This document shows positions 1 to 21,678 of a DNA stretch of 43,312 nt, one piece after another. Under the pieces are notes generated by a model. That model saw only the letters and a program-made list of their open reading frames with translations, had not been told where the DNA came from and made no database searches. Source of the DNA: a virus (lineage: Duplodnaviria > Heunggongvirae > Uroviricota > Caudoviricetes); IMG/VR virus record IMGVR_UViG_2565956616_000006, positions 1-43,312 of that record; one strand, written 5' to 3'. The number at the start of each line of letters is the position of its first letter. The first letter of the stretch is position 1. A program made the translations under genes and the position numbers.

Positions 1-102
1 GAGCCAGAGCCAGAGCCAGAGCCAGAGCCAGAAGAAAAACAGCGTAAAAAGCCTGGTCGAAAACCTAAGGCGGCAGCAGATGAACCTGACAACGAAGGGT
101 GA
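1..102 (+). CDS. 3' end of an upstream phage gene (5'-truncated by window edge) with a C-terminal (Glu-Pro)5 repeat
   Basis: Open frame from position 1 to TGA at 100-102; five tandem GAGCCA hexamers encode [10 protein letters not shown]; overlaps the next gene start by 23 nt. Confidence 0.4.
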
Positions 103-580
103 TTTAGTTCTTGCGGCATTACGTAAGCTCGGTGTGGCATCAAATGCCACGTTAACCGATGTCGAACCGCAGTCTATGGAAGACGGCGTCAACGACCTTG
201 AAATGATGATGGCTGAATGGCTTGGCGGTGATGTGTCACCTGGCATCAACGTTGGCTACATTTTCGCTGATGCAGATGTCGCTCCAGATCCGGGCGATGA
301 GCACGGTTTATCAAATAACGCTATCAATGCCGTCATTTTCAACCTTGCCTGCCGCATTGCTCCGGATTATGCGCTGGAAGCGTCTGCAAAACTTATAACC
401 ACTGCCAGATACGGGAAAGAGCGACTCGTCAAACTGTCTGCAATGGACAGAGCAAAAGCCGCTAAATGTAAGTCCGGTTATCCAAACCGTATGCCTGTTG
501 GTAGCGGTAACCAGTTGGCGAAGTGGAATGGTTGGAATTACTTCCACCGAAAGGAACCTTGCGATAACGGGAGCGAATAA
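80..580 (+). CDS. gp4: P22 gp4-like head completion / portal-closure protein (166 aa)
   Basis: 166-aa ORF; length and sequence ([25 protein letters not shown]...) match my recollection of P22 gp4; position at start of gp4-gp10-gp26 block. Confidence 0.75.
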
Positions 581-1998
581 TGCCGATTCAGCAACTTCCG
601 CTTATGAAAGGTGTAGGCAAAGACTTCCGAAACGCCGACTATATCGACTATCTGCCAGTGAATATGCTGGCTACACCCAAAGAAATCCTGAACAGCAGCG
701 GATATCTTCGCTCATTCCCGGGAATTGCCAAACGTTCTGATGTGAACGGTGTATCGCGCGGCGTCGAGTACAACATGGCGCAGAATGCTGTTTATCGCGT
801 GTGTGGCGGCAAGCTGTACAAAGGAGAAAGTGAAGTCGGTGATGTTGCCGGAAGTGGTCGCGTATCAATGGCGCATGGTCGGACATCGCAGGCGGTAGGC
901 GTTAATGGTCAACTTTTCGAGTATCGCTATGATGGCACGGTTAAAACCGTCTCAAACTGGCCTACAGACAGCGGATTCACACAGTACGAGTTAGGTTCAG
1001 TTCGCGACATTACGCGCTTACGTGGGCGTTATGCGTGGTCAAAAGACGGAACTGATTCATGGTTTATCACTGACCTTGAAGACGAATCGCACCCTGACCG
1101 ATACAGCGCACAATATCGCGCAGAATCGCAGCCAGACGGCATCATCGGCATAGGTACATGGCGAGATTTCATCGTCTGCTTTGGTTCATCGACGATTGAA
1201 TATTTCTCCCTGACTGGTGCAACCACCGTTGGTGCTGCTTTGTATGTCGCACAGCCATCACTGATGGTGCAGAAAGGCATTGCCGGGACTTACTGCAAAA
1301 CGCCGTTTGCTGATTCCTATGCGTTTATCAGCAATCCGGCAACGGGTGCGCCGTCTGTATACATTATCGGCTCCGGTCAGGTATCACCAATCGCCAGCGC
1401 GAGCATTGAGAAAATCCTCCGCTCTTACACTGCTGATGAACTGGCTGATGGCGTGATGGAATCTCTGCGATTTGATGCGCATGAGCTTCTGATTATCCAT
1501 CTTCCGCGCCATGTTCTGGTGTACGACGCATCTTCAAGCGCCAATGGTCCGCAATGGTGTGTGTTGAAAACTGGCTTGTATGACGATGTGTACCGCGCTA
1601 TCGACTTCATTTACGAAGGCAATCAGATAACGTGCGGCGATAAGCTGGAATCTGTTACCGGGAAACTGCAATTCGACATCAGCAGCCAGTACGACAAGCA
1701 ACAGGAACACCTGCTGTTTACTCCGTTGTTCAAAGCGGATAACGCCAGAGTTTTCGACCTTGAAGTTGAATCGTCAACTGGCGTTGCGCAGTACGCCGAC
1801 CGCCTTTTTCTCTCTGCAACCACTGACGGCATCAATTACGGACGTGAGCAGATGATTGAGCAGAATGAACCGTTCGTTTACGACAAACGCGTTTTGTGGA
1901 AGCGAGTTGGGCGCATCAGGAAAAATGTCGGCTTCAAATTGCGTGTTATCACTAAGTCACCTGTCACTCTGTCAGGCTGCCAGACAAGGATCGAGTAA
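580..1998 (+). CDS. gp10: P22 gp10-like tail accessory factor (472 aa)
   Basis: 472-aa ORF with start overlapping gp4 stop; length identical to P22 gp10 and conserved gene order. Confidence 0.75.
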
Positions 1999-2699
1999 TG
2001 GCTGATTCGAATCTCAATGAGCCGGTAATCATTCAGGCTACACGACTCGATACATCAATCCTTCCACGCAATATATTCAGCCAGTCTTACCTGCTGTATG
2101 TCATAAATCAGGGAGCTGATGTCGGCGCAATTGCCGGGAAAGCAAATCAGGCTGGTCAGGGCGCTTACGATGCTCAGGTGAAAAACGATGAACAGGACGT
2201 CGAACTGGCTGATCACGATGCAAGAATCACCGCAAACACAAAAGCGATAAATCTACTTGAGGTCAGGTTAACAACTGCCGAAGGGAAGATAGTCGTACTG
2301 CGTAGCGATGTTGATTACTTGCTGGATGAGGTTATCGATATTCAGGCGCATCTGGTCACTGTTGACCAAAGACTGGATGGCGTAGAAAGCGATGTATCTG
2401 ACATTAAGAGTGATTACGTATCGAAAACTGTAACCGAATCGCAGTCTCTTGCGTCACCGCTGGATGTAAAAACATCATATTCAGTTGATGGAATTCAGGT
2501 CGTTGGAGCAAGGCAGACCGGATGGACTGCAGCCACAGGTACGCCACTTCTTGGCTCATTCAACGCTAACCAGTCATACACGGTCGGCACTACGTACACA
2601 CAATCCGAAGTCGCGGCTCTCGCTACAGGTTTGCAGCAGGCGCGGCAGCGTATTCTGGCGCTTGAAACGGCACTTAGATTACATGGGCTGATTGACTGA
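1998..2699 (+). CDS. gp26: P22 gp26-like tail needle (233 aa)
   Basis: 233-aa ORF, central heptad-repeat coiled-coil region, translationally coupled to gp10; size and order as in P22. Confidence 0.75.
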
Positions 2700-3154
2700 T
2701 GATTACATTCAAACCAACGCGAAACATCGACCTGATCGAAGCAGTCGGAAATCACCCTGACATTATCGCTGGTAGCAACAACGGTGATGGATACGACTAC
2801 AAACCTGAATGCCGTTACTTTGAGGTGAACGTGCACGGGCAGTTCGGCGGCATTGTTTACTATCAGGAGATTCAGCCGCTGACATTCGATTGCCACGCCA
2901 TGTACCTGCCAGAGGTTCGTGGATTCAGCAAGGAAATCGGGCTGGCGTTCTGGCGATACATTCTGACTAACACCACCGTTCAGTGCGTCACATCGTTCGC
3001 CGCGCGCAAATTCCGCCACGGTCAGATGTACTGCGCAATGATTGGCCTTAAGCGTGTAGGAACCATCAAGAAATACTTCAAAGGCGTGGATGACGTGACG
3101 TTTTACAGCGCCACACGCGAAGAACTAATCGACTTCCTGAATCACGGGAGATAG
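2699..3154 (+). CDS. gp14: P22 gp14-like protein (151 aa)
   Basis: 151-aa ORF between tail needle and ejection protein genes, as in P22 late operon. Confidence 0.7.
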   Translation: MITFKPTRNIDLIEAVGNHPDIIAGSNNGDGYDYKPECRYFEVNVHGQFGGIVYYQEIQPLTFDCHAMYLPEVRGFSKEIGLAFWRYILTNTTVQCVTSFAARKFRHGQMYCAMIGLKRVGTIKKYFKGVDDVTFYSATREELIDFLNHGR

Positions 3155-3156
3155 CC

Positions 3157-3852
3157 ATGTTATATGCATTTAAGCTGGGCAGAAAACTGCGCGGCGAGGA
3201 ACCTTATTGCCCTGAAAAAGGCGGGAAAGGTGGCAGCTCTGATAAAAGCGCAAAGTATGCAGCAGAAGCTCAGAAGTATGCCGCAGACCTGCAAAATCAG
3301 CAGTTCAACACCATCATGAACAACCTGAAACCGTTTACTCCTCTGGCTGAGAAGTATGTCGGCAGCCTCGAGAACTTATCGTCTCTGGAGGGGCAAGGTC
3401 AGGCGCTTAACCAGTATTACAACTCTCAGCAGTACAAAGACCTTGCAAGTCAGGCGCGCTATCAGAGTCTGGCGGCAGCGGAAGCAACAGGTGGATTAGG
3501 TTCCACCGCAACCAGTAATCAGTTAGCAACAATCGCACCAACGCTTGGTCAGCAATGGCTATCTGGTCAGATGAACAACTACCAGAATCTGGCAAATATT
3601 GGTCTTGGCGCACTGCAAGGTCAGGCAAACGCCGGGCAAACATATGCCAACAACATGAGTCAGATTTCGCAGCAAAGTGCGGCTCTTGCAGCGGCAAATG
3701 CCAACAGACCATCAGCAATGCAATCTGCTATTGGCGGAGGTGCGTCTGGTGCTATTGCTGGGGCTGGACTTGCGAAATTAATTGGTTCATCAACTCCGTG
3801 GGGTGCTGGTATCGGTGCTGGTATCGGTCTGCTTGGTTCACTGCTTTATTAA
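3157..3852 (+). CDS. gp7: Ejection (E) protein gp7-like (231 aa)
   Basis: 231-aa ORF, Gln/Ala-rich with Gly-rich hydrophobic C-terminus (GAGIGAGIGLLGSLLY); position after gp14. Confidence 0.8.
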   Translation: MLYAFKLGRKLRGEEPYCPEKGGKGGSSDKSAKYAAEAQKYAADLQNQQFNTIMNNLKPFTPLAEKYVGSLENLSSLEGQGQALNQYYNSQQYKDLASQARYQSLAAAEATGGLGSTATSNQLATIAPTLGQQWLSGQMNNYQNLANIGLGALQGQANAGQTYANNMSQISQQSAALAAANANRPSAMQSAIGGGASGAIAGAGLAKLIGSSTPWGAGIGAGIGLLGSLLY

Positions 3853-3862
3853 GGGGTAATCA

Positions 3863-5278
3863 ATGGCTACGTGGCAACAGGGTATTAATTCTGGTAGTTT
3901 TCTGGCTGGCATCGGTACGCAAAATGAGAATGCGCCAAAGGCAAGCGACATTAACGCAACGCTTGGTCTGATCCGCGAAAACAATGAACTGGCTCGCTCA
4001 GGTGCAAATAACGTTGGCCTGACCGCGTTACGTGGTCTGGCTGGAGTTGCTGATATTTACAATCAGGAACAGCAACAGAAAGCTATTAGTGCGTTCAATA
4101 AGGTTCACGCTGATGCATGGGCTTCTGGTGATCCATCGGGACTATTTAAGTTTGCCCAGGAAAATCCAGCGTTTGTTGCACAGGCACAACAGGCGTTTTC
4201 TGGTCTTAATGATCAGCAACGCAACGATATGGGCGATTTAGCCATGATGGCTAACGTCGCTCTTTCTCAGGGGCCGGAAGCCTACAGTAAATTCATTACT
4301 GACAACAAGGACAGGTTAAATCGCGTTGGTGCTAATGCTGACTGGATGATTCAGACAGGTATCCAGAATCCAGAGCAGTTATCACACATGCTGACTACTA
4401 TGTCTCTCGGTGCACTTGGGCCAGAAAAGGCGTTTGCTGTTCAGGACAAGATGGCTGGTCGTGAAATTGACAGAGGCAGGCTGGCAGAGACAATCCGCAG
4501 CAATCAGGCTGGTGAAGCACTTCAGGCGAGAGGGCAAAACCTTTCCTATCAATCAGCAATGACTGGGCACAATATCGCAGCACAACGCTTGGCTCTGGAT
4601 CAGCAAGAGTTCGGGTTTAAAATGCAGCAAGCGCAGGAAAAGGCTCAGCAGTTGATTAGCGAAGCACCTAAGCTGTCAGTAAACATGGAAAAAGGCATCG
4701 AGACGGCTGTAAACAATGCTACAGCATCATCAAACTCAGCCAATTCTATGAGTGCGCTTGCTCAACAGTTCAGAGCAGAAAAACCAACGACAGGTTTGTT
4801 CGGTAACGCACAGAACATGTTCGCAAAACTTACCGGAAGCGATACAACATTGCGTGATTTGCGCATTCGCCAAAATGCCCTTGTTAACAGTCAGGTTCTT
4901 AAATTCCTACCTCCCGGCCCAGCAACGGATAAAGACGTTGAGATCGTTCGACAGGGTGCTCCAACTGACATGGATAACCCTGAGACGGTCGCAAGATGGC
5001 TTGATGCAATGGCAAACCTTGAGCGACGAAACGCGCAGTTTAATGAGTTTAAAGCCGAGTGGATGAGCGCGAATGGCAACCCTGGACAATCGCGTAATGG
5101 CGGTCAGATATTGGGGTTGGATGTTAAAAAAGGTGAATCATTGGGGAGTGCCGTTAAGCGGTATATGTCAATGAATACTGACGCAGCGCCAGCACAAGAT
5201 TCGACACCTTCAGGAGAACCACGGAATCAGGTTGGATCATATACCTCAAAATCAGGCATTCAATTTACGGTGGAATGA
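3863..5278 (+). CDS. gp20: Ejection (E) protein gp20-like (471 aa)
   Basis: 471-aa ORF following gp7; same length as P22 gp20. Confidence 0.8.
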
Positions 5279-7116
5279 TGAAAGTAACTGCAAACGGTAA
5301 GACATTTACCTTTCCTGATGGTACGAGCACCGAAGATATTGGCACCGCCATTGATGAGTATTTTGCTGGTCAGGCTGTTCAGCAACAAACAGTTAATCAG
5401 GCCAATAATGCACCAACACGGGAAGAACCATCATTGATGCAACAAGCTGGCGATTGGCTCACTGGTGGTCAAAGTGCAGGGCAAATTGCAGAACAGGCTG
5501 GTCGTGGTCTGGTAAACATACCATTTGACGTATTGCAGGGCGGCGCAAGTCTGATTAATGCAATCAGCCAGGGGCTTGGTGGGCCAAAAGTATTGGATGA
5601 TGTTTATCGTCCAGTAGACAAACCGACAGACCCATACGCACAAGCCGGTGAAACAATTGGTGGGTATTTAGTTCCAGGAGTTGGAACGGCAGGAAGCATG
5701 GCTATTGGATCGCTGGCAGAGGCCGCAAATCAGAAAGGTGATTTCGCACAAAATGCAGCTAAAAATGCCGGAGTTAACCTTGCCGCTCAGGGTGTTCTTT
5801 CCGCAGCAGCAAAGGGAATAGGGCGTGGAATAACGGCTATAAAAGGTGATATTGCGCCAGAAGTGGCGAAGAAAATTGCCACATCAGAATCGATGGGCGT
5901 GACACCAATGACATCTGATGTTATCCCGCCGAAAAATGCTTTCACTCGCGGACTTACTCAGGATGCTGAGGGGGCTTTGCTCGGGACAGGCTCAAAGCGA
6001 GCGGAGCAATATGCAACGCGTAGTAAGCTGGTAAGCAATTATTTTGACCGTTTTGGTGAGTACAACCCTGATGATGTGGTGAAATCTCTGACCACCACGT
6101 TAAGGGGACGGAAGGATGCCGCTGGCGCTGTTATCAATGACGTCACCAATAAAATGGGTAATGCCGCAGTTGATACCACAAATACCATGAATGCTCTGAA
6201 TACAGCGATCGCAAGACAGGAACGGCTTGGGACGTCTGCCAATCAAAGCCTGCTTACATCCTTGCGTAACCTACGTGAAGAATTAGCAAACCCTGCAACT
6301 GATTTGGATGTTACGTTTGATCTCTTGCGTCAGCACAGAACAGCATTTAGATCCAATGTTCAGGGAGATGCTATGGTCTTCCCCAACCAGGCAAAAGCAG
6401 CTACCAATATGGTAGAGAATGCAATGTCAAAAGACCTTCGTAACGCAGTTGCTAAAAACCTCGGTGCATCAGACGCAGCAAAATACCTTAAAGCAAATTC
6501 CGATTATGCAAACGTTTATAATAAGGTGCTTAATAAAAACATTGCCAACAAGCTCAACAAGGCAAGCAGTGAAGCCAGTCCTGAACTTATAAATACCGTT
6601 GTATTAAGCAGAAAACCATCTGACGTGAAACGAATCTGGAGCGCACTGGATGATAAGGGAAAAGATGCTATGCGTGCAGCTTACGTCAGCAAAATAGCGG
6701 AAAAGGCCGGGGACTCTCCAGCCAAGTTCATCACTGAAGTTAATAAGCTGAAATCTCAGTCAGGCGGTGAAATTTACAACACTATTTTTTCTGGAAAGCA
6801 CATGAAAGAGCTTGATGCTCTTCATGAAGTTCTACAGCAAACAGCAAGGTCAGACACCGCAAATGTAGTAACTCAGACGGGGCAATCGCAAGCCAACAGG
6901 ATAAGGACGATTGGCGCAACTGCGACCCTTGGCGTATCAATGGGGCTTGAGGCTGGTTTTGGTGCAATGATGCGCTTGTATGAGTCAAAAGCAGCAAGGA
7001 ATGCTCTCTTACGTTTGGCAAACACCAAAGCAGGAACACCAGCCTATGAAAGAGCGATAAATAACGCTGCGAATGCCATCAGACCGCTGTTTGCTACTGA
7101 GGCAACACAGCAGTAA
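5275..7116 (+). CDS. gp16: Ejection (E) protein gp16-like (613 aa)
   Basis: 613-aa ORF overlapping gp20 stop; order 14-7-20-16 as in P22. Confidence 0.8.
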
Positions 7117-7140
7117 CGTATGGGAAATTGGATTCAATCG

Positions 7141-7530
7141 CTAACATTTTCTTTTTACTTTTCCAACAAAAGCTTTGGTTGAATCCATATTTCCATAACC
7201 GGAAATGGTTTTTGACATTAAAACTGTTCCAGTAGGATGTATTACCCATGAGTCGATAACGCGTTGAGTTTCGCCATTCGCGCCGATTCCTATGATGGAG
7301 TTTTTAGACAATGCTTTGTAAGCCATGCCGCCCGCATCTGTCCCAGAATATGTGATGCTGGCATCTTCACCGTTTGTCTTAATGATGAATGTTCCACTAA
7401 AACCATCTTCTTCCGGATGGAAATTATTTCGTTCTGAATAGCTTATTCCGCGCATATCTCCAACGACCCAGCACTCTGCTGTAGCCCCAAAAGATATGAA
7501 TAAGAACATAGCAGTAAGAAATTGCTTCAC
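7141..7530 (-). CDS. Secreted hypothetical protein (129 aa) with N-terminal signal peptide; moron at the position where P22 carries sieA
   Basis: ORF with MKQFLTAMFLFISFGATA signal-like N-terminus; opposite strand to late operon. Confidence 0.55.
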   Translation of the reverse strand: MKQFLTAMFLFISFGATAECWVVGDMRGISYSERNNFHPEEDGFSGTFIIKTNGEDASITYSGTDAGGMAYKALSKNSIIGIGANGETQRVIDSWVIHPTGTVLMSKTISGYGNMDSTKAFVGKVKRKC

Positions 7531-7647
7531 GCCAACCTCCTTAGTTTTGAGCAGGATACCATGAAAAAAGTAAACATCTTTTGCCTACTTCACATTTGAA
7601 TGGTTTGTCATTAGGATGTTTCCGGTTTTTTAAATATGGAAATTGAT

Positions 7648-8067
7648 ATGAAGAGGATTATTGGCGTCGTTGCTGGCGCTATATTGTTATCTGGGTGCGC
7701 AACTATTGTTGGTGACGAAACGCAGCTTGTGCAAGTGAACAGCAATCCTTCCGGTGCGAGCTTTAAGGTAAAAGACGAATCAGGCGTGATTGTTGCGCAA
7801 GGCAAGACCCCGCAAGGAGTAACTCTTGCCAAGTCAGATGGTAGTTATTTTGGCAAAAAGAGCTACCAGCTCACTATGGAAAAGGATGGGTACGAACCAG
7901 TCACCCTGCCAATCAAAGCCAATGCTAATGGTTGGTATATTGGTGGAAACCTTGTGTTTGGTGGGTTAATTGGTTGGCTTGCTGTAGATCCTTTTAATGG
8001 TGGGATGTATACCTTGAAGCCAAAAGAGGCAAACGCATCTCTTATACCATCAACAAAGCAAGACTAA
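7648..8067 (+). CDS. Lipoprotein (lipobox LLSGC), possibly PEGA-like fold; moron
   Basis: MKRIIGVVAGAILLSGC signal/lipobox; ORF could start at 7636; followed by strong terminator. Confidence 0.6.
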   Translation: MKRIIGVVAGAILLSGCATIVGDETQLVQVNSNPSGASFKVKDESGVIVAQGKTPQGVTLAKSDGSYFGKKSYQLTMEKDGYEPVTLPIKANANGWYIGGNLVFGGLIGWLAVDPFNGGMYTLKPKEANASLIPSTKQD

Positions 8068-8075
8068 TAAATAGG

Positions 8076-8098
8076 ACCCACCTTCAGGTGGGTTTTTT
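8076..8098 (+). terminator. Rho-independent terminator
   Basis: ACCCACC-ttca-GGTGGGT stem-loop followed by T6 run, directly after lipoprotein stop. Confidence 0.7.
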
Positions 8099-8335
8099 GT
8101 ACAAATCCTTCAGCGTATCAAACACCATCTTCTTAACAAGCTCTGACTGCTCATCAGCGAGTCGTTCTGCATCGTCGCGATATCCAGTCACAGGCGATGG
8201 TTTTGATAGAGCATCTTGGACGATTTGTAACAACTCGGAGTTCATTGATCTCCCATTCGCCTCCGCCCTGAATTTTAATTTCTCCCTTACTTCCATAGGC
8301 ATACGGAAGTTAAAGTGCGGATCATCTCTAGCCAT
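8084..8335 (-). CDS. mnt: Mnt repressor (83 aa)
   Basis: Protein MARDDPHFNFRMPMEVREKLKFRAEANGRSMNSELLQIVQDAL... matches P22 Mnt essentially throughout as I recall it. Confidence 0.9.
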   Translation of the reverse strand: MARDDPHFNFRMPMEVREKLKFRAEANGRSMNSELLQIVQDALSKPSPVTGYRDDAERLADEQSELVKKMVFDTLKDLYKKPT

Positions 8336-8357
8336 GCCATCACTCCAAGTTAGTGTA

Positions 8358-8409
8358 TTGACATGATAGAAGCACTCTACTATATTCTCAATAGGTCCAC
8401 GGTGGACCT
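8358..8409. promoter_or_regulatory. Pant promoter region with Arc operator and Mnt operator
   Basis: TTGACA (8358-8363), 17-bp spacer, TATATT (8381-8386); Arc operator ATGATAGAAGCACTCTACTAT (8363-8383); Mnt operator palindrome AGGTCCACGGTGGACCT (8393-8409). Confidence 0.8.
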
Positions 8410-8425
8410 ATATTGTGAGGTGAAT

Positions 8426-8587
8426 ATGAAAGGAATGAGCAAGATGCCGCAGTTCAATTTGCGGTGGCCTAAAGAAGTATTGGATTTGGTACGCAAGGTG
8501 GCGGAAGAGAATGGTCGGTCTGTTAACTCTGAGATTTATCAGAGAGTAATGGAAAGCTTTAAGAAGGAAGGGCGCATTGGCGCGTAA
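8426..8587 (+). CDS. arc: Arc repressor (53 aa)
   Basis: [53 protein letters not shown], near-identical to P22 Arc; the longer ORF from 8363 is an upstream extension. Confidence 0.9.
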
Positions 8588-8655
8588 AGTTGAAGCCCCA
8601 ACTGCGGGAACAGTCAGGGCTTCGGTATCAACAAATCGGATTAGGAAATATTGAC

Positions 8656-9534
8656 ATGAAAAGTATAGCAAAGGCACAAAACGATTTCACCATCTTCAAA
8701 TTCGGCGACAGTGAAATCCGCGTCATCAACAAATGCGGTGAGCCGTGGTTTGTAGCAAAAGATGTTTGTGATGCTTTAACCCTGACTAACTCACGCAAGG
8801 CGCTTACTGCACTTGATGACGATGAAAAGGGAGTAACTTTAAGTTACACCCTTGGTGGTGAGCAGAATCTAAGCATTGTTAGCGAATCAGGTATGTATAC
8901 ATTGGTTCTGCGCTGCCGCGATGCTGTCAATAAAGGTTCGGTACCGCACAAATTCCGCAAGTGGGTAACAGCAGAAGTTCTACCTTCAATTCGCAAACAT
9001 GGCGAGTATGTGAAAGGCAAGAAAACCACTGTTGAGGAAAGAACGCCGCTACGCGATGCAGTAAACATGCTGGTAGGAAAGAAAGGACTTCGCTATGACG
9101 ATGCATACAATATGGTTCATCAGCGTTTTGGTATTGACAGCATTGATGAACTTTCAATTGAACAAATCCCGCTGGCCGTAGAGTACATCCACAGGGTAGT
9201 GCTTGAAGGCGAGTTTATCGGCAAGCAAGAGAAGAAAGCAAACGAGCTTTCTGCAAAAGAAGCAAACAGCCTTGTATGGCTATGGGATTATGCTAACCGT
9301 TCACAGGCATTATTCCGCGAACTGTATCCGGCATTAAAACAAATTCAATCGAACTATTCCGGAAGATGCTACGACTACGGTCATGAATTCTCGTATGTTA
9401 TCGGAATGGCGAGAGACGTTTTAATAAACCACACACGAGATGTTGATATTAATGAGCCAGACGGACCAATGAATCTTTCCGCATGGATGAGACTTAAGAA
9501 TAAAGAATTACCTCCTTCAGTACATAACTACTGA
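8656..9534 (+). CDS. ant: Antirepressor Ant (293 aa from ATG 8656)
   Basis: Immediately downstream of arc; ATG at 8656 preceded by AGGAAA; the 8590 start in the ORF track is a TTG. Confidence 0.75.
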
Positions 9535-9552
9535 CAGATAACCAACGCAACG

Positions 9553-9577
9553 ACCCAGCCTCGGCTGGGTTTTTTTA
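9553..9577 (+). terminator. Rho-independent terminator after ant
   Basis: ACCCAGCC/GGCTGGGT stem followed by T7. Confidence 0.7.
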
Positions 9578-9634
9578 TGCCCAAAATTCACCGTAGCCAT
9601 GCTGCGGCCATTCCTTGTATCTGGAGCAAATTAA

Positions 9635-11440
9635 ATGACAGATTCAATAAATGCCAATGTTGTAGTGAGCATGCCTTCTCAACTCTTCACTATGGCGCGT
9701 TCTTTTAAAGCGGTTGCCAATGGCAAAATTTATATCGGAAAAATTGACACTGACCCGGTAAATCCTGAAAACCAGATTCAGGTTTATGTGGAGAACGAAG
9801 ACGGCTCTCACGTTCCTGTTTCGCAACCAATCATTATTAACGCTGCCGGATATCCGGTATATAACGGACAGATTGCCAAGTTCGTAACTGTGCAAGGCCA
9901 TTCCATGGCTGTTTATGATGCATATGGTTCTCTGCAGTTCAATTTCCCGAATGTGCTGAAATATGATCCTGATCAGCTTCGCCAGGAAATAACATCGACT
10001 GGAGATGGAAAGGGGGCTGACATGATACCCCTAACACAAGGAGGAACAATTCAGAATGCTGTGTTCGCAGTAACACCTCAGGCTTATGGCGCAACATGCG
10101 ATGGTGTGGCTGATGACTCAGATGCTGTTGAAGAAATGATGGCAGCCTATCCAAATCATTTGATTATTACAATCCCACCTGGTTCAGTGCTTACAATTAA
10201 ACGAAAGCTCGTATATGGAGGTAGGCGCTTTGAGGTTCGTGGATATTCTGGAGATATGACTAATAAGGTTATAGGAGCAGAGTCAAGTCAATTATATTGT
10301 GACGTTCCTGGGGACTATGCTATTCAATGCGAAAATTCGGATGTTTTTTTATCTGATGTCATTGTAAAGGGAATCCCACAGTATGGAAACGGTACTATCG
10401 GTACGAATAAAGGAATATCGACATTAAATGGTAATATTAAAACAAACCGCACTTCTTGGCTTGGGTTTGACGTTCCATGTCAAGGTATCAATTCTTTTTA
10501 CGTAACATTTATAGATACAGATTGGCTTGCAATTAAAAATGGCCCAGATATACAGCGGGCATATAACATTAAGTTTATAGGCGGAAGATCTGTTGATTTT
10601 GATACATTTTTCAAAATGTCAGCCGCTGCTGGTAATGGTCCGATTAATTTTATTGCCATGGCGTTTGAACGGTGGACGAATTACGTTGTTGGTACTGATT
10701 CTGCTGCACTTATTCGACCGCAAAATATAGCGTTTAAATTTTGTTACTTTGAAAATATGGATGACCAATCTATTTATAACGGTCTTACTGGACGGGCAGG
10801 CGCTGCGACTCCAGGTGATGCATTTTATAAAAAGTATGCTTATGCCCGCATACTGGTCGGTACGCCAACGTCTTTCAGCATGGACGAAACTAACACTGTA
10901 TATGCTAAAGGGCTTGAAAACGGATGTATAGCAATTGATTCTTGGGGTATACGGGATCTTGTGTTCAAGCCTAAAATTGTTACTCCAGCAGACTCATGGA
11001 ATAGTAACCAGAGGCCATTAAGCATGGTTAGGGCAACCTATCTTGACCATGTCGATGTTTTTAATAATAACACCTCACCAGATGGTGACTTAGGGTTTCC
11101 ATTTATATCATCTGATAACTCTACACTGTTACCAACAATAAGATCAGGCGTTGGTGTATCCCATGGGAAAACAGTATTGTTTAATGGTTTCTACAATCAG
11201 ACTATAACATTCCAAGATGTTCCAGCAGGTGTCAATGTATATCAAGATATAACAACAACAGAAAAGTTAGACATGGTAAATGCAAGTGTTAAGATAACAT
11301 CAAGAAGTGCAGCTTCTGCTATTGCCACAACTCAATTGCAGGTGTTATCTTCAAATAAAATTCGCGTACACATAACAAATGGTCACAGTAACCCTGTAAC
11401 ATTTTCTGTGGCAATTGTAATTCCATATTTATTCAAATAA
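9635..11440 (+). CDS. gp9: Tailspike protein (601 aa): P22-type N-terminal head-binding domain fused to a different receptor-binding domain
   Basis: First ~110 aa (MTD...[36 protein letters not shown]...[12 protein letters not shown]...NVLKYDPDQ) match P22 tailspike N-terminus as recalled; remainder differs in sequence and length. Confidence 0.8.
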
Positions 11441-11446
11441 TCTAAA

Positions 11447-11468
11447 AGCCCATTACTGGGCTTTTTTA
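11447..11468 (+). terminator. Rho-independent terminator after tailspike
   Basis: AGCCCA-ttac-TGGGCT stem followed by T6. Confidence 0.7.
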
Positions 11469-11804
11469 TTTTCAGCACACCAATCGAGGCGTGCTTTGCA
11501 AATAGCTTTAACATTTCTTCTATCAGCTAATAATCAAAGGCATGAAGTCTATCATCCAAGTCTCAATCGATCGATACTTGCGGTAGTTGATGAAGAAAAA
11601 CTCTGGTACACAAAGCTTTGCACTGGATTGCAAGGCTTTGTGCTCTTCTGTGGATGTGTGGCTACATGTTTGAAGATCGTTGTGCCGTATTTGTGACATA
11701 TACATGACAACATCATGCATCAACTTTCTGTTTGTGCCATCAACTATAGCTTAGTGAATGCGGTTAATGCTTGCTAAAACAGATAGTTATGATTGGTGCT
11801 ACAG

Positions 11805-11850
11805 ATTCGTAATGCGAAGGTCGTAGGTTCGACTCCTATTATCGGCACCA
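11805..11850 (+). tRNA. 3'-terminal 46 nt of tRNA-Thr(CGU) (anticodon loop to CCA); att core, not a complete tRNA gene
   Basis: ATTCGTAATGCGAAGGTCGTAGGTTCGACTCCTATTATCGGCACCA matches the 3' part of enterobacterial thrW as recalled; upstream 30 nt do not match the tRNA 5' half. Confidence 0.75.
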
Positions 11851-11852
11851 TT
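11833..11852 (+). repeat. att direct repeat copy A (CTCCTATTATCGGCACCATT)
   Basis: 18-nt core TCCTATTATCGGCACCAT recurs at 30355-30372 and 42759-42776 in the same orientation. Confidence 0.85.
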
Positions 11853-12015
11853 CAAACATCTCCCCAAGTCTACTAAAGTCTTTCAAAACCCCTTATAATC
11901 CGCGTATTAAAGCCCCGCTCGTCTTTTGACGTCTACTAAAGTCCCTCAAAATCTACGGTCAGATGGGGGTACTTATGGGGGTATTTGCTGTTCGGTTTAG
12001 TGGAGGTACCCCCAA

Positions 12016-13230
12016 GTGAAACTCAATGCCCGTCAAATAGACACAGCCAAGCCAAAAGAGAAGGCTTACAAGCTGGCCGATGGTGGCGGTTTGTATCTCT
12101 TGGTAAAACCTAATGGAGGTAAATACTGGCGACTTAAATATCGTGTAGCTGGTAAAGAGAAGCTATTGGCACTAGGTGTTTATCCTGAGGTTACTCTAGC
12201 CGATGCTCGGGCAAAACGTGAAGATGCGAAAAGAGGTATCGCTGGTGGTATCGATCCGATGGAAGCGAAACGAGAGGAAAAGATTGCCCGGGAAACGCAG
12301 TTAAACAACACCTTCAAAGATATTGCCATTGAGTGGCACAGCAGCAAATTAAAAAAATGGTCTGCTGGTTATGCTTCAGACATCCTCGAAGCCTTCAACA
12401 AAGATGTGTTCCCTTACATTGGCAAAAAACCCATCGCCGAAATCAAACCACTTGAACTTCTGAATGTGCTGCGTCGCATCGAGGGGCGCGGTGCTACAGA
12501 AAAAGCCAAAAAAGTGAGGCAACGGTGCGGGGAAGTTTTCCGCTATGCAATAGTCACTGGTCGCGCAGAGTATAACCCTGCACCAGACCTTACTAGCGCG
12601 ATGCAAGGCCATGAATCTAATCATTACCCTTTCCTTACAGCCAAAGAATTACCTGATTTTTTCAAGGCATTGTCCAGTTACTCAGGAAGCGCATTGGTTG
12701 TTATGGCGGCTCGTCTACTGATTATCACCGGCTTGCGGACTGGCGAACTACGTGGCGCATTATGGGATGAAATTGATTTCAACAAGGCTATCTGGGAGAT
12801 ACCCGCTTCACGTATGAAAATGCGGCGGACTCATATTGTGCCATTGTCTGAGCAGGCTCTTTCGCTTATTGGGAAGATTAGAGAAATAACAGGCAATTAC
12901 CCTCTTATGTTTCCCGGGCGCAATGATCCAAGGAAAACAATGAGCGAGGCCAGCATAAACCAAGTGTTTAAGCGCATTGGCTACGCTGGACGTGTAACTG
13001 GTCATGGGTTCCGGCACACTATGAGTACGATTTTGCATGAGCAGGGCTATAACACCGCGTGGATAGAAACGCAGCTCGCTCACGTTGATAAGAACTCAAT
13101 TCGTGGCACATACAACCATGCGCAATATCTGGATGGAAGGCGGGAGATGCTTCAATGGTATGCCGACTATATGGATTCTCTCGAGCATGGCGGAAATGTG
13201 GTGCATATGGTGTTTGAAAAACACGCATGA
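12016..13230 (+). CDS. int: Tyrosine integrase, P4/CP4-57 (IntA) family
   Basis: 404 aa; N-terminus KPKEKAYKLADGGGLYLLVKPNGGKYWRLKYR typical of P4-like integrase arm-binding domain; C-terminal HGFRHT and Y-containing catalytic motifs; GTG start with GGAGG RBS; immediately downstream of tRNA 3' core. Confidence 0.85.
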   Translation: MKLNARQIDTAKPKEKAYKLADGGGLYLLVKPNGGKYWRLKYRVAGKEKLLALGVYPEVTLADARAKREDAKRGIAGGIDPMEAKREEKIARETQLNNTFKDIAIEWHSSKLKKWSAGYASDILEAFNKDVFPYIGKKPIAEIKPLELLNVLRRIEGRGATEKAKKVRQRCGEVFRYAIVTGRAEYNPAPDLTSAMQGHESNHYPFLTAKELPDFFKALSSYSGSALVVMAARLLIITGLRTGELRGALWDEIDFNKAIWEIPASRMKMRRTHIVPLSEQALSLIGKIREITGNYPLMFPGRNDPRKTMSEASINQVFKRIGYAGRVTGHGFRHTMSTILHEQGYNTAWIETQLAHVDKNSIRGTYNHAQYLDGRREMLQWYADYMDSLEHGGNVVHMVFEKHA

Positions 13231-13373
13231 AACAACTGGACAAGTATACAGAGGTTTACTAAAGTATAGGGGAGTAGATTGATAAAAACTCACAGAGGAT
13301 TGCTATTTAACAGTTAGCCCTGGAGAAGGGCAATCGCTCTTTTATAAACGAAGGTGTATTGAGCCTTCTACGT

Positions 13374-13436
13374 CGCTGACAAAGCGGAATGTTCTTTAAC
13401 AGGCTTTGGCGCTGACAAAGCGCAATTGTTCTTTAA
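13374..13436. repeat. Two ~26-bp direct repeats (CGCTGACAAAGCG.AATGTTCTTTAA) 36 bp apart
   Basis: Seen directly between int and alpA; candidate integrase arm sites or operator. Confidence 0.5.
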
Positions 13437-13658
13437 AACTACTGGATGTCACGCCTAATAGCGTGATCCTGCCGAAATGCAGGGTAGCTCTACCCTTGTG
13501 GAGCAAACAAACCAAAACAATCTGACTATCTTTTATAAAAGACCGCAATATGTTTTTCATATTGTGGTCTTTGGCGTATTCGACATTTGACGCAAATAAA
13601 ACTCTCGCCATTCGTTGCAGGAGGGAGTTATTGCGTCATTAGTACAGGATATTAATAA

Positions 13659-13862
13659 ATGGCTAATTACAATTCATTAATTCGTCTCTCTGAAGTTCAA
13701 AGGCGAACTGGTTATAGCAAAGCATGGATTTATCGTCTTATTAGTCAGGGGAGGTTCCCTAAACAGGTAAAAATTGGAAGTCGGGCAATTGCTTTTGTTG
13801 AGTCTGAAATAGATGAATGGATTGAGAAGTGTATATTAGAATCTAGAGACGAGGTGGCCTGA
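13659..13862 (+). CDS. alpA: AlpA-family DNA-binding protein (excisionase/regulator-like)
   Basis: 67 aa; LIRLSEVQRRTGYSKAWIYRLISQGRFPKQVKIGSRAIAFVESEIDEWI resembles the AlpA/prophage CP4-57 regulatory protein HTH. Confidence 0.75.
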   Translation: MANYNSLIRLSEVQRRTGYSKAWIYRLISQGRFPKQVKIGSRAIAFVESEIDEWIEKCILESRDEVA

Positions 13863-14293
13863 TGGAAAAGAAAAACCGCCCATTACAGGCGGCTAATTCA
13901 GATATTCGTGTATCTGATGTTACGCCCCTTACAAAATCCCTTCAAGCACCAAAGCGCACACCGAAAAAGCATCGTGCCAGAGTCTATATGCTGCGTACTG
14001 GTATAGAGGGATGGACAGAAAATGACATTCTTCGCTACTGCCGTCTGTCTTCTGGTCGTAACTATGCAACAGAGTTAGAACGCCAGCTTGGAATCACTCT
14101 GGAGCGTATCGACGAAAAGAATCCTGATGGTATCGGAACACACCTTCGCTACCGTTTCTCCTGCCGTGGTGATGTTCTGAAAGTGATCACTCATATTAAC
14201 CATCTTGCGAACATAAATGATCACAACGGACTTTCTCAGCAGGAAATTGCCGACATTCTGAAACTCTACCCGGACGCGTTTAACGCCGCCTAA
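13862..14293 (+). CDS. Hypothetical protein (143 aa)
   Basis: ORF translationally coupled to alpA. Confidence 0.5.
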   Translation: MEKKNRPLQAANSDIRVSDVTPLTKSLQAPKRTPKKHRARVYMLRTGIEGWTENDILRYCRLSSGRNYATELERQLGITLERIDEKNPDGIGTHLRYRFSCRGDVLKVITHINHLANINDHNGLSQQEIADILKLYPDAFNAA

Positions 14294-14305
14294 CGGAGAC
14301 TGAAA

Positions 14306-15139
14306 ATGAACATCGAAAAAAGCAGATTAATTTCTGAGGCCGCCCCTCATCTGAACGCCTCTCTGGGCACAATTAACGGTAATGAATTTGCCGCAATTGT
14401 CCCGGTTATTCCTGGTCATATCGGTGGGCGTGAAACCAATATTGTTAGCGCAAAAGCGTTACACAAAGCGTTGGGCGTGGGAAAAGACTTCTCTACATGG
14501 ATCACTGATCGCATCTCTGAATATGACTTCACCATTGGGCACGATTACTCAGTCCATAAAACAATTTCCCCAAATTTGGGGAAAAGCCCGAATGGCGCGG
14601 CTTACAGCAAGATAAAGCACTCTGGCAGACCCGGCAAAGACTATCTGTTAAGTGTCGGAATGGCGAAAGAACTGGCAATGATCGAACGCAATGATCAGGG
14701 TCGCGCTATCCGCCGTTATTTCATCCAGTGCGAGGAAGAATTACAGCGTAGCGTGCCTGAAATCGCCGCCCGCTATCGTCGCCAGCTAAAAGCCCGTCTC
14801 AGTGCCGCAAACAACTTTAAGCCAATGTGCGATGCGCTGAATATGGCCCGTGCCGAGATGGGTAAAACGACGCAGCAACACCACTACACAAACGAGAGCA
14901 ATATGATTTCTCGTATCGTTCTTGGTGGGCTAACTGCTAAGCAGTGGGCGCGGATAAATGGCTATTCTGGCGAACCTCGCGACCATATGAACGCAGAACA
15001 GCTTGAGCACCTCTCATATCTCGAAAGCACCAATATCACGTTAATTGATATGGGCATGGAATATGAGCAGCGCAAAGGAGAACTCACCCGCCTGTCGCAA
15101 CGCTGGCTCGCCAAGCGTCTGGAGGTGGTCAATGTCTAA
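14306..15139 (+). CDS. Hypothetical protein, possibly antirepressor-like (KilAC-type C-terminal motif)
   Basis: 277 aa; segment DYLLSVGMAKELAMIERNDQGRAIRRYFIQCEEE resembles phage antirepressor/KilAC domains (weak, from memory). Confidence 0.45.
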   Translation: MNIEKSRLISEAAPHLNASLGTINGNEFAAIVPVIPGHIGGRETNIVSAKALHKALGVGKDFSTWITDRISEYDFTIGHDYSVHKTISPNLGKSPNGAAYSKIKHSGRPGKDYLLSVGMAKELAMIERNDQGRAIRRYFIQCEEELQRSVPEIAARYRRQLKARLSAANNFKPMCDALNMARAEMGKTTQQHHYTNESNMISRIVLGGLTAKQWARINGYSGEPRDHMNAEQLEHLSYLESTNITLIDMGMEYEQRKGELTRLSQRWLAKRLEVVNV

Positions 15140-15314
15140 GCCAACAGGAACACCACAACCACAAAAACGCTACAAAGATGCCCACGGAGCACTCGTTACT
15201 GTCGAAAGCGTGTCTCACAACCGAGTGACGTTTTATCGCGACGGGTATCAATCGCCATGCGTACAACCGCTGGCGCGTTTCATGAAGGAGTTCGCGGAGG
15301 TTAACAAATGCTAA
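15132..15314 (+). CDS. Small hypothetical protein (60 aa)
   Basis: ATG at 15132 with GGAGGTGG RBS; inside longer ORF 15045-15314. Confidence 0.4.
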   Translation: MSKPTGTPQPQKRYKDAHGALVTVESVSHNRVTFYRDGYQSPCVQPLARFMKEFAEVNKC

Positions 15315-16375
15315 CCGTCCAGAAGAAGACATTTTCACTGGCTGGTATGTCGCCAAAATCCAGCAATATGACGGCAAAGTCAGGCATTAATACCGCAGAT
15401 ACAAGCAAAGTTTATCATTTGCTGGTGGTCGGAACGGATGCCTTAACCATATCAGAAATCTCGGGCGATGATATTAGCATTGAGAAGGTCAGCGGCTGCG
15501 CCAGAAAATTTCTGGTCGTAGATGATGTCTTCCGCTCGTGTAGTGACTCCACAAAAACATTCGTCCACGCGCGTGACGTTAACGAAATGAGCGCGATGTA
15601 CTGTGCATCTGGTGCTTCCAATAGCGAGTTTTCGGAGTCCATAAAAAAGAGCTTGCCGTTATGCGGCAACACGGTTTATGGTTATAAGGCACCTCATAAA
15701 ACGGGTGCCGGGATTGGCGTCCTGGTAAATCGAATGGCGACATATGACGCGCCGAGCGTCTTTTTTTATGTCGTAGGTCTGACTCACCCATTTTTTGGGC
15801 GTTGGTGTATAATCCAGCGCCTTTGTCAATCAATGGTGGCTCAGGCAGGGGCTTCTTCGGAAGCGCCGGTATCCATTCGAGCCGGTTACGCCAACCCTGT
15901 CTGGGCTACCACCAGCGAAATTGGCGTTTCCGGTGGTAGCGTTACATGCTATCGAATGGAGGCTGCCACATGCTGGCTACTACCCCTACCCAAAAACCGC
16001 AATTTATCTGGATTATCGCCGCAGTTCGCCGCGATTGCCCGACAATTACCGCCAAAATTCATCATATTGCTGCCGAGTCTGAACGCGATGCTCGCCGTTC
16101 TCTGGTGCGCGATCACGTCTGCTTTTTTGCTGGTCGTATCCGCATGGAGGTGGCTCATGATTAAAACCTACGATGTGCATATGGATCCCCTCGAACGCAC
16201 AAGCCAGATCATCACACTGACAGAAGTGATTAACGACATTCTGGTGAGCAACTCTCCCTCACGAGACGAAAGACTGAAGGCGTTACTCGCGATATTGGAT
16301 CTCGCCGTTCGTGACGTTCATTTCCTGCTGGAAGGTGGCGAAATGCCAGGAAAAACGGGGGCAACCAATGAATAA
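15308..16375 (+). CDS. Hypothetical ORF (355 aa); gene model uncertain
   Basis: ATG with GGAGG RBS 9 nt upstream, but low-complexity translation; internal RBS-supported starts at 15970 (other frame, 64 aa, ends 16164) and 16157 (same frame, 72 aa) suggest several small genes may occupy this interval. Confidence 0.3.
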
Positions 16376-16562
16376 CTCAATTAATACCCCTCGCCTTACG
16401 TCCGCACTTCAATTAATCGAGCAAGCAGCGGCTGTCCTGGTTGCTGTCAGTCTTTCGGCTGAAGAAATGGACGCTGCTGATGTCGTGGATGCGATTAAAG
16501 CGTGCTCATCTTTGGTTAACGATGCCCGTGCCGAGCTGGTAATTCTTGGGGGTGAAAAATGA
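16368..16562 (+). CDS. Small hypothetical protein
   Basis: ATG start MNNSINTPR within ORF 16311-16562. Confidence 0.4.
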   Translation: MNNSINTPRLTSALQLIEQAAAVLVAVSLSAEEMDAADVVDAIKACSSLVNDARAELVILGGEK

Positions 16563-16822
16563 ATATCAACTTAATTTATCGTCATCCGTGTGAGCTGGAA
16601 ATTGAATCATTGCTGGGGCGTGAAGAGCCATATCCAGACACATTCACTCCCGCAGATTGCGCGACTGAACGGCTTACCAGAGCGCGCACAGGTCTGGTTC
16701 ATGTGATGAATGAGATTGTTCCCTCGGTGGGAGGGGAACAGGCGACAGTAATCAATAGCTGGCTACAAAAAGTTACCTCCCTGATAGATATCGGTTTAAT
16801 CGATGTGGAGAGTGCGAAATGA
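16559..16822 (+). CDS. Hypothetical protein (87 aa)
   Basis: ORF with overlapping stop/start coupling to neighbours. Confidence 0.45.
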   Translation: MNINLIYRHPCELEIESLLGREEPYPDTFTPADCATERLTRARTGLVHVMNEIVPSVGGEQATVINSWLQKVTSLIDIGLIDVESAK

Positions 16823-17040
16823 CCAACATCCAGCTCATTGAAGCGCAATGTCGCATCGAACAGGTTCAGACTGTTTTAGGGTTCTGGCTTGAAGGGGCCA
16901 GCCCCAGCAACAGAGACAAGTTAATGATTGGCGCGGTTATGTCACTGCTTAATGGCGTACCAGAAGCTATTCAGGAAGCGGACGAATTGTTGGGCAAATA
17001 TGAGTTACAGAATCATTCAGGCGAGGCGAAACATGAATAA
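16819..17040 (+). CDS. Hypothetical protein (73 aa)
   Basis: ORF, translationally coupled. Confidence 0.45.
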   Translation: MTNIQLIEAQCRIEQVQTVLGFWLEGASPSNRDKLMIGAVMSLLNGVPEAIQEADELLGKYELQNHSGEAKHE

Positions 17041-17635
17041 TTTCTTAACTTTCCATGCAGAAGCAACGCCTGACGGCGTAAACATCATGTACCGCAGCAA
17101 CGATGGCATGACAGAACGCGTTGAGGCCATCTCATATATTGATGCCGTAAATCGTCTGGATGCCGGGGATTATGACGATAAACCAGATGAAGGTATGTCA
17201 ATACATCTCGCTATTGCCGATGGCGGCAACCAGGGATATTTCGATTACACATCACAGCATAACGTCATTATGTGGAGATGGCTGATCGCAACAGTATTCA
17301 TGCTGGAAATGAGAGAGGAAAACGGCACTGTCAGCATCATTGATGATACTGGCAATCCTTCCGAAGTGGCTGTTTATTCCAACGGCATCGTCGCCATGCC
17401 GCTGTATCCAGTAGCAGAGCGCCTCGCTATGGCAAACAACATTGAGGGCGCGATGATAGAACGTTTTGGCATCGAGTCTGGCACAGAACGCGCCATCATT
17501 TTCTACAGAGCCATGATGGATGTGGAACAAGGAGCACTGACTCCATTTGGTCGTGAAACGCTTGCTGAACTTCACAACAGCTTTATAGCTGAACTGAATG
17601 AAAACGGCATGCCAGCGGAACCAGTGACGCACTGA
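17033..17635 (+). CDS. Hypothetical protein (200 aa)
   Basis: ATG at 17033 (MNNFLTFHAEA) within ORF 16928-17635. Confidence 0.5.
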   Translation: MNNFLTFHAEATPDGVNIMYRSNDGMTERVEAISYIDAVNRLDAGDYDDKPDEGMSIHLAIADGGNQGYFDYTSQHNVIMWRWLIATVFMLEMREENGTVSIIDDTGNPSEVAVYSNGIVAMPLYPVAERLAMANNIEGAMIERFGIESGTERAIIFYRAMMDVEQGALTPFGRETLAELHNSFIAELNENGMPAEPVTH

Positions 17636-17645
17636 GGATGGAGCC

Positions 17646-21094: not shown

Positions 21095-21112
21095 GCTTCT
21101 TCATGTGCGTAG

Positions 21113-21233
21113 AAAAGGTGTTGGTTCAGTTGGTTCAGTTGGTTCAATTTGTAAAGTGTATTGTTTTATAAGGATTTTATTCTTTTTATTGAACCAACAC
21201 TGAACCAACAACACGGTATTTTGAACCAACACA
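21113..21233. repeat. ori-like iteron cluster 1: 3x TTGGTTCA(G) direct, AT-rich spacer, 3x TGAACCAAC inverted
   Basis: Seen directly, immediately downstream of primase-helicase stop. Confidence 0.7.
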
Positions 21234-21280
21234 ATGTGACTGAATTGATGCGCACAACACCTGGCTGGCATCAGAGAGTG

Positions 21281-21583: not shown

Positions 21584-21678
21584 GTGCTATTTGTTTCATA
21601 TTTTGCAATTACTATGATGAATATTGCGATTTGTGAAACTATAATAACTGTTGTTTTATACAGTTCTAAGGGGGCGTT

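Follow-up and report, generated by a model that had tools for sequence, protein, structure and literature searches.

A short patch within gene 20 as a probable recombination joint shared by P22-like phages and an EcCIMP1-like phage-inducible island

Boundary or linker sequences at the junctions of lambdoid modules were reportedly described by Susskind and Botstein in 1978 and, for HK620, by Clark et al. in 2001, who are said to have proposed that such sequences promote modular exchange, and intragenic mosaic modules in the ejection-protein genes of P22-like phages were reportedly set out by Casjens and Thuman-Commike in 2011. Here, we analyze a near-identical 47-bp patch shared by gene 20 of a P22-like prophage and by the gp20-like gene of a neighboring phage-inducible chromosomal island (PICI), both carried on a stretch of viral DNA of 43,312 nucleotides (IMG/VR record IMGVR_UViG_2565956616_000006, positions 1 to 43,312; hereafter, the window). 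Like the lambdoid boundaries, the patch is short conserved DNA between interchangeable modules and able to support homologous crossover; unlike those boundaries, which are intergenic, it lies inside a coding sequence, in a structural helix, and is anchored by a protein motif. We propose, with a probability of about 0.75, that gene 20 of the enterobacterial P22-like gene pool contains a conserved recombination joint with the patch at its core, and that the island gene carries this joint because the EcCIMP1-like island takes part in the pool.

Phage-gene mosaic joints, gp20 mosaicism, and the EcCIMP1 island family are all established. Leavitt et al. called gp20 and gp16 "highly mosaically related," found that gp20 tolerates very different intragenic modules, and put intragenic mosaic modules of gene 20 on record (PMC10461980); the patch belongs to the same gene family and the same phenomenon, and represents one such module boundary. 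To the summary of the 2011 work given in that study, our analysis adds a profile of identity at the nucleotide level, shows that linkage collapses across the joint, and brings in a PICI as a participant. The mechanism we propose for the joint is the exchange between phages and defective elements at short diverged homologies described by De Paepe et al. in 2014, who reported that Rad52-like recombinases, including the Erf-family enzyme of phage D3, are efficient on short diverged sequences and that ~100-bp exchanges inside genes are frequent (PMC3945230); the partners in that work were defective prophages, whereas here the partner is a satellite island. For the closest described island, EcCIMP1, both induction and transduction by the P22-like phage Kapi1 are on record, as is a contribution to superinfection immunity (Pick et al. 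2025, PMC11773190). The window island shares with EcCIMP1 its site (proA-thrW...yagU), its gene order, and 97.9% DNA identity over 11.3 kb, but has other gp20-like and gp16-like alleles from position 23149 onward and AbiD among its accessory genes. Compared to both bodies of work (PMC10461980; PMC11773190), what is new is the fine mapping of the joint, the two-block linkage around it, and a satellite's full, selected ejection module recombining with phages. The patch itself is what phage mosaicism ordinarily produces, and no new kind of element.

The two copies of the patch, at 4490-4536 (+) in prophage gene 20 (codons 210-225 of the 471-aa gp20) and at 23571-23617 (+) in the island gp20-like gene (codons 195-210 of 473), agreed at 46 of 47 bases in direct comparison, with a T at 4513 against a C at 23594 as the sole mismatch. 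Both copies lie in frame 0 of their genes and code for 15 residues and the first two bases of a Q codon, and their limits are exact because the bases immediately outside (4489/23570 and 4537/23618) differ. The one-mismatch pair coding for the same peptide was therefore found as the original prediction had described it, and so were its gene labels. Both proteins match the Inj_translocase family PF16928 (gathering cut-off, 29.7 bits): the prophage ejection protein gp20 (471 aa; 3863-5278, +) with 391 bits (E = 2e-117, residues 12-228), and the island gp20-like protein (473 aa; 22989-24410, +) with 196.6 bits (E = 5.7e-58, residues 34-213). Each gene stands in a gp14-gp7-gp20-gp16 ejection module on the plus strand. 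The prophage module (2699-7116; gp14 2699-3154, gp7 3157-3852, gp20 3863-5278, gp16 5275-7116) matches P22-like phages by tblastn, and its island counterpart extends over 21857-26515 (gp14-like 21857-22318, gp7-like 22312-22989, gp20-like 22989-24410, gp16-like 24410-26515); the order DUF2824, P22_gp7, Inj_translocase was present in both sets in Pfam searches, and the gene downstream of the Inj_translocase gene matches the PHROG 770 DNA transfer protein.

The surroundings of the patch are diverged, as had been claimed. Upstream of it, the N-terminal halves of the prophage and island gp20 share 39% of their amino acids and 51% of their nucleotides, and BLASTP homology between the two proteins ends a few residues past it. 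Codon-aware alignment gave overall nucleotide identities of 43-54% across the four gene pairs gp14, gp7, gp20, and gp16, and in a sliding-window comparison the patch was the top 16-codon window among all four pairs, with 46 of 48 bases identical against a gene-20 mean of 22.4/48 (sd 6.8), so that its identity stands above the gene-wide average. Between the prophage (1-11804) and the island (11805-30375), no exact match exceeds the two 23-mers within the patch, and the one that ranks next has 14 nt.

Could purifying selection on the amino acids of a critical peptide motif, together with codon bias and without any recombination, have kept the patch? The motif is plainly constrained. It occupies the end of the Pfam domain, which finishes three residues past the patch (profile position 217/218, equivalent to residue 228 of the prophage gp20 and residue 213 of its island counterpart), and the peptide pattern [TQ][IE]RS[NH]xAGExLxxRGQ is kept in distant relatives in APSE-2, phiSG1, Arsenophonus, and Citrobacter. 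The DNA tells otherwise, as 14 of 16 codons in the patch are identical where codon usage in the eight genes of the two ejection modules predicts 5.4 of 16 (exact P = 6.3e-6), and the fixed codons include the non-preferred ACA, CTT, AGA, and GGG. Upstream of the patch, identical codons make up 29 of the 76 that specify the same residue in the prophage gene 20 and the island gp20-like gene, and the second-best 16-codon window, in gp7, reaches only 36/48 bases (12 nucleotide differences) with 16/16 identical residues. The distant relatives likewise use other codons for the same residues: APSE-2 and phiSG1 retain much of the motif with freely different codons. P22, L, and Sf6, which have variant peptides such as TIRSNKAGEGLQARGQ, carry the first 15 nt of the patch followed by other synonymous codons (e.g., CGC for AGA). 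The patch identity is thus beyond what amino-acid constraint alone explains, since such constraint cannot account for identity at synonymous sites, and the synonymous-site counts contradict purifying selection as the sole cause, which we regard as very improbable. Purifying selection on the motif, which the original prediction had offered as one explanation, stands at the level of the peptide and leaves the synonymous-site identity unexplained.

The distribution of the patch across other loci argues for recombination. We scanned IMG/VR for any DNA coding for the 16-residue peptide, with all synonymous codons allowed, and found at least 120 loci that encode it; the values given next describe the matches listed from that scan. 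Mean pairwise identity was at least 0.94 at twelve of the 16 third positions and 0.87 at a thirteenth, with appreciable variation only in the Gly, Glu, and last Gln codons and minor variation in one Ala codon, whereas further upstream, beyond the shared segment, the third positions of invariant-residue codons were free to vary (pairwise identity 0.36-0.60), a further argument against selection on the peptide alone. The 180 nt upstream of the patch fall into six N-types with 26-74% nucleotide identity among types, and the 240 nt downstream into four C-types with 28-64%, and the same, almost invariant patch DNA occurs with every flanking type. N0 was found with C0, C1, and C2, N1 with C1 and C2, and N2 with C0 and C1, so that the four-gamete test was passed twice (N0/N2 by C0/C1 and N0/N1 by C1/C2). 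In the 697 pairs of loci differing on both flanks, identity was 0.32-0.52 upstream, rose to 0.72 at -48 to -25 and 0.84 at -24 to -1, peaked within the patch, at 0.97 in one half and 0.92 in the other, and fell to 0.29 from +48. Maximum-chi-square breakpoints formed two clusters, mostly at -52 for a change of N-type and at +47 for a change of C-type. Between-type identity rises over an extended shared segment that runs from -52 to +47 of the patch start, corresponding to 4438-4537 (+) in the prophage gene and to 23519-23618 (+) in the island gene. An 86-nt segment containing the patch is present in 1183 of 5426 complete E. coli genomes; a profile search of genome contigs with the gp20 N-domain yielded 10 loci and added little.

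These distributions also bear on the possibility of a recent gene conversion private to the two resident copies, helper and island. The setting would favor it, as the copies are direct repeats 19,081 bp apart in tandem elements at thrW, and islands of the EcCIMP1 type are mobilized by a P22-like helper (PMC11773190). But the island patch is identical in genomes without this prophage (E. coli MB49 and locus L130), the patch occurs in all flank types in IMG/VR and its 86-nt segment is widespread in E. coli, and the haplotype of each copy is the one that its C-type usually carries. Patch haplotypes are common to several N-types, with a last codon (CAA or CAG) that follows the C-type; the prophage gene (N-type 1, C-type 1) has the haplotype TTAAA with CAA as its last codon, and the island gene (N-type 3, C-type 0) has TCAAG with CAG. 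N-type 3 was found in islands only among the typed IMG/VR loci. A private conversion between the residents is accordingly barely credible. The suggestion of a gene-conversion tract and recombination substrate was right in kind, though not as an event between these two copies, and the patch is better described as a probable mosaic joint of the whole population.

Linkage among the flanking segments points to the same position. We typed nine segments from gene 7 to mid gene 16 in 77 unique loci and measured their association by adjusted mutual information (AMI). Values were high within the left side (0.51-0.57 for gp7 segments with gp20 N-segments; 0.82 for gp20-N1 with gp20-N2) and within the right side (0.91 for gp20-C1 with gp20-C2; 0.39-0.71 for C-half and tail segments with gp16), and dropped to 0.03-0.19 between gp20 N-segments and C-segments across the patch. 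The N2 and C1 segments are ~110 nt apart at their nearest ends and have an AMI of 0.16, and the patch is therefore the main linkage break of the ejection-gene cluster, dividing gp7 and the gp20 N-half from the gp20 C-half and gp16. As judged from these alignments, old and divergent types of the gp20 N-half appear to travel with gp7 on the left, and unrelated or very divergent types of the gp20 C-half appear to travel with gp16 on the right.

The two-block linkage fits both the structure of the P22 channel and published genetics. Residues 1-230 of the prophage gp20 align without gaps to P22 gp20 (90.4%), and therefore P22 numbering applies and the patch corresponds to residues 210-225. The P22 protein is packaged in the virion, ejected, and assembled into a dodecameric channel through the periplasm. 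In the in situ structure of P22 gp20, residues 1-47 line the gp7 scaffold, 51-66 form an outer-membrane helix adjoining gp7, 68-185 form the PP1 bundle, 186-255 (PP2) an elongated 12-helix barrel spanning the periplasm, and 256-435 the plinth, with a tail modeled against the gp16 N-terminus (bioRxiv 10.64898/2026.09.03.749273). The patch lies in the middle of the PP2 helix because residues 210-225 fall inside 186-255; it is a strongly constrained stretch in the last part of the Inj_translocase domain. A PDB sequence search with gp20 gave no match, and an AlphaFold single-sequence model of the island gp20-like protein was too poor for use (mean pLDDT, 47.8). Sf6 gp7 is functional in P22, gp20 and gp16 must share one phage origin, and in both of these proteins the mutations that escape SieA lie in the C-terminal part (PMC10461980). 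We infer that gp7 with the gp20 N-half and the gp20 C-half with gp16 are units held together by selection.

A selected nucleic-acid element overlapping the coding sequence, such as an RNA fold, a promoter, a small RNA target, a Chi-like site, a pause or start site, or an overlapping gene, would explain why twelve third positions are nearly fixed among the IMG/VR matches listed, and several candidate signals lie at the patch, yet each of these fares poorly. A promoter-like TTGACA-16-GACAAT at 4467-4494 was the one site of its kind in a promoter and terminator scan, against 0.5 in shuffles, which is non-significant; its island counterpart falls under the scan threshold (~8/12 by eye), and most of the patch is downstream of its -10 hexamer. 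GCTGGTGA at 4508-4515 has 7/8 bases of the Chi hotspot GCTGGTGG, and we rejected it as a Chi site, since it occurs in the prophage copy only and is not conserved; the T of this octamer is the most variable site of the patch (T, A, or C). The sequence GAGAGGG resembles a Shine-Dalgarno site, with no start codon 5-10 nt past it in either copy. RNA folding of both copies on both strands gave z-scores of +0.7 to +1.2, below shuffles in stability, and an Rfam scan of the whole window returned no family at either copy of the patch. Complementarity of the patch to the isrK and C4 RNAs of the island, to the sar RNA of the prophage, and to the rest of the window was no better than for shuffled sequences, and no alternative-frame or antisense open reading frame (ORF) was conserved over 100 unique loci, with variable starts and lengths down to 35-46 codons. 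P22 and L, moreover, work with CGC for AGA and further synonymous changes, and synonymous diversity in the patch is not reduced within types: third-position diversity was 0.07-0.08 in the patch and 0.03-0.14 in the flanks, in a comparison of limited power, as diversity is low everywhere. There is thus no sign of extra nucleotide-level constraint, because within-type diversity in the patch is not below that of the flanks, and a selected nucleic-acid element is in our judgment highly unlikely.

We return to a recombination joint as the preferred explanation, which is further informed by where shared tracts end. Against the co-resident prophage, the near-identity of the island is the 47-nt patch plus a shoulder of ~71% in the 42 nt upstream. 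When the partners are phages of other C-types, the island match spans 80-86 nt (23532/23538-23617) at 86-90%. With bona fide P22-like phages of the island's own C-type (C0), a 180-nt tract (23571-23750, +) is 93-100% identical and begins exactly at the patch, with ~60% identity further downstream and 50-77% upstream; the loci behind this tract are in phage context (L035, L002, L108, L010, L013, and L004). An E. coli prophage (L131) closely matches the first 30 nt of the patch only. The tract ends vary with the partner, and the patch is therefore not one fixed element.

Further matches to phages occur elsewhere in the island ejection module. A second near-identical tract (24348-24579, +) straddles the gp20-like and gp16-like genes, taking in the 3' end of the former and the 5' end of the latter. 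This tract belongs to the Sf6 type, with 96% identity to Sf6 and HF4s, and its region 24400-24550 is 100% identical to the prophage L131, which is consistent with a gp20 tail coinherited with the gp16 N-terminus. The island gp14-like gene is ~99% identical over 21950-22250 to a locus in phage context (L009), and the DNA of the gp16-like gene (24750-26500) matches gene 16 in L021 at 91-100% identity. L021 is a contig of a bona fide P22-like phage; it runs on into mnt/arc, ant, tailspike, and O-acetyltransferase genes and couples this island-like gene 16 with a gp20 of the prophage's C-type. No phage match was found for 22750-23500 of the island. As read from these mosaics, the island lineage and phages have exchanged DNA.

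The gene-16 homologues share a weaker patch close to their 3' ends, where 7000-7063 and 26396-26459 are 73% identical over 64 nt with a 14-nt exact run. This pair could be the right-hand joint of a cassette made of the gp20 C-half and gp16. A stop-anchored ungapped comparison of gene-16 3' ends gave no signal for such a joint; it is out of register for the window pair. A single crossover between the resident copies of the patch deletes 19 kb, including the tailspike and the island replication genes, and a useful exchange therefore needs a second crossover.

We propose that amino-acid constraint at the patch would keep enough DNA identity for homologous recombination, likely by phage Rad52-like recombinases such as Erf or by host RecA, during coinfection or between resident prophages and islands. 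RecA-dependent exchange in E. coli has a lower limit of ~23-27 bp, and the two exact 23-nt runs of the patch are near that limit. Crossovers would then concentrate in a window of ~100 nt, because amino-acid constraint maintains DNA identity there, and repeated exchange would unlink this segment from both flanks and give it a recent common ancestry over all allelic types, from which near-identity even at synonymous sites would follow. The recombination machinery is inferred from these patterns, and no recombinase gene was found in the window.

A related possibility is that second-order selection preserves the patch as a linker or boundary sequence, since it promotes modular exchange, as was reportedly proposed for the lambdoid junctions. 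The joint lies exactly between two coadapted blocks, and swapping them could be advantageous, as C-terminal variation in gp20 and gp16 matters for SieA escape (PMC10461980). On the other hand, the peptide is kept in lineages without the DNA patch, which favors protein constraint as the primary cause, other gene-20 alleles (Kapi1 and EcCIMP1) break at other places, and selection for evolvability is hard to sustain; the same data fit a joint maintained by amino-acid constraint and recombination equally well. We consider selection for exchange itself unlikely.

Several points weigh against our proposal of a conserved joint. The evidence consists wholly of comparative patterns, namely the observed identity profile, reassortment of flanks, collapse of linkage, variable tract ends, and island-phage mosaicism. 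Single crossovers alone do not homogenize a segment, and drift, sweeps, or heteroduplex repair are also needed for the low divergence between types. Twelve third positions are almost fixed among the IMG/VR matches listed, and with little diversity inside any type, the within-type comparison has limited power against nucleotide-level selection. Because loci were selected by the exact peptide, variant-peptide alleles (P22, L, Sf6, Kapi1, and EcCIMP1) are underrepresented, and no hybrids of the island-specific N-types 3 or 4 with the phage C-types 1 or 2 occurred among the typed loci. The gp20 proteins of Kapi1 and EcCIMP1 are without the motif and break elsewhere, and the patch is therefore a major joint and not the only one.

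The island itself (11805-30375, +) is an EcCIMP1-like PICI at thrW that is 97.9% identical to EcCIMP1 over 11805-23149, a match of 11.3 kb to the EcCIMP1 reference of E. coli MP1 (NZ_CP139039) that starts at the integrase and ends at codon 54 of the island's gp20-like gene. Besides the ejection module, the window island codes for an integrase, AlpA, AntA, Ash, a TOPRIM/DUF927 primase, AbiD, and a PerC-like regulator, with Pfam matches to Phage_integrase, Phage_AlpA, and Toprim/DUF927/Zn_Ribbon_Prim. It was present at a coverage of at least 80% in 87 of 5426 complete genomes, and in E. coli MB49 it stands alone beside a tRNA-Thr, which adjoins the integrase, with 100% identity over the island. 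Past 23149, the window island and EcCIMP1 differ in their gp20-like and gp16-like alleles and in accessory genes; the EcCIMP1 gp20-like protein has 439 aa and is without the patch motif, and its gp16-like protein has 906 aa. At this position, near the end of the gp7-contacting part, similarity to EcCIMP1 drops sharply from 97.9% to unalignable, and two further loci (L067 and L081) break at 23091 and 23124. Position 23149 is thus a second intragenic joint in gene 20.

EcCIMP1_017-019 were regarded as hypothetical proteins possibly acting in packaging (PMC11773190). Our homology searches place them in a complete gp14-gp7-gp20-gp16 set, not recognized as homologues of ejection proteins in that study. 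The island ejection genes are maintained and not decaying, because dN/dS between island copies is 0.11-0.31. We tentatively suggest, as a doubtful idea, that satellites of the EcCIMP1 type keep a selected ejection set, swap the gp20C-gp16 cassette at joints such as this patch with any P22-like phages that they encounter, and use it either to equip helper capsids or to cause superinfection immunity. If so, a satellite could place a DNA-delivery conduit of its own choice in helper capsids, e.g., one that bypasses SieA-type exclusion in recipients; alternatively, superinfection immunity would arise by interference with the conduits of incoming phages or by spoiled, mismatched virions. Carrying ejection proteins would in either case be a new satellite strategy, and an ejection module drawn from the helpers' own pool is a concrete candidate for the unexplained superinfection and transfer effects of EcCIMP1. 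Independently of this suggestion, the natural separation point of the P22-like ejection cluster is placed within ~100 nt, which can guide cuts for chimeric ejection proteins.

Directly after the gp16-like gene, a 204-aa ORF (26534-27148, -) has a weak PHROG match to "superinfection exclusion SieA-like" (E = 4e-4), with no tblastn match in phage genomes and no PADLOC match. On that footing we did not accept a SieA-like identity; the ORF is a possible candidate for the reported superinfection immunity, on thin evidence. The accessory region of the island also encodes an AbiD abortive-infection protein (27973-28995; PADLOC, E = 8e-58), which is without counterpart in the annotated EcCIMP1 region of MP1, and no known defense systems were found in EcCIMP1 by its authors (PMC11773190).

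P4-like traits of the island are limited to an Ash domain and to RNA-immunity-like Rfam matches to isrK (67 bits, 15689-15766) and C4 antisense RNA (79.5 bits, 15829-15916), which both lie inside an ORF annotated as "ash family protein" (15308-16375). These matches suggest a P1/P4-type region for RNA-based immunity and an ash ORF call that may be partly spurious. The capsid-hijack genes of P4-like satellites (psu, delta, and sid) were absent from the RefSeq annotation of the island and from Pfam scans of its larger ORFs. In the prophage, an Rfam match to sar RNA (71.6 bits; 8588-8654, -) lies at the start of the ant-like gene, which is the immI arrangement of P22. The P22 pac site was absent from the window at up to 3 mismatches.

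Finally, copies of the thrW 3' end form an att repeat between prophage and island (11817-11854, +) and recur at 30338-30375 and 42742-42779, with the first two copies bounding the island; no intact tRNA was found in the window. The last two repeats bound a third element (30376-42779), with a tyrosine integrase (41337-42701, -) and a Dit-like tail protein (40587-41255), in which most ORFs are without a Pfam match, and the window therefore holds three elements in tandem at thrW. In E. coli LS45 (L140), the identical island has another P22-like prophage as its tandem neighbor, one whose gp16 has 743 aa and whose tailspike region differs, and prophage-plus-island tandems at thrW therefore recur.

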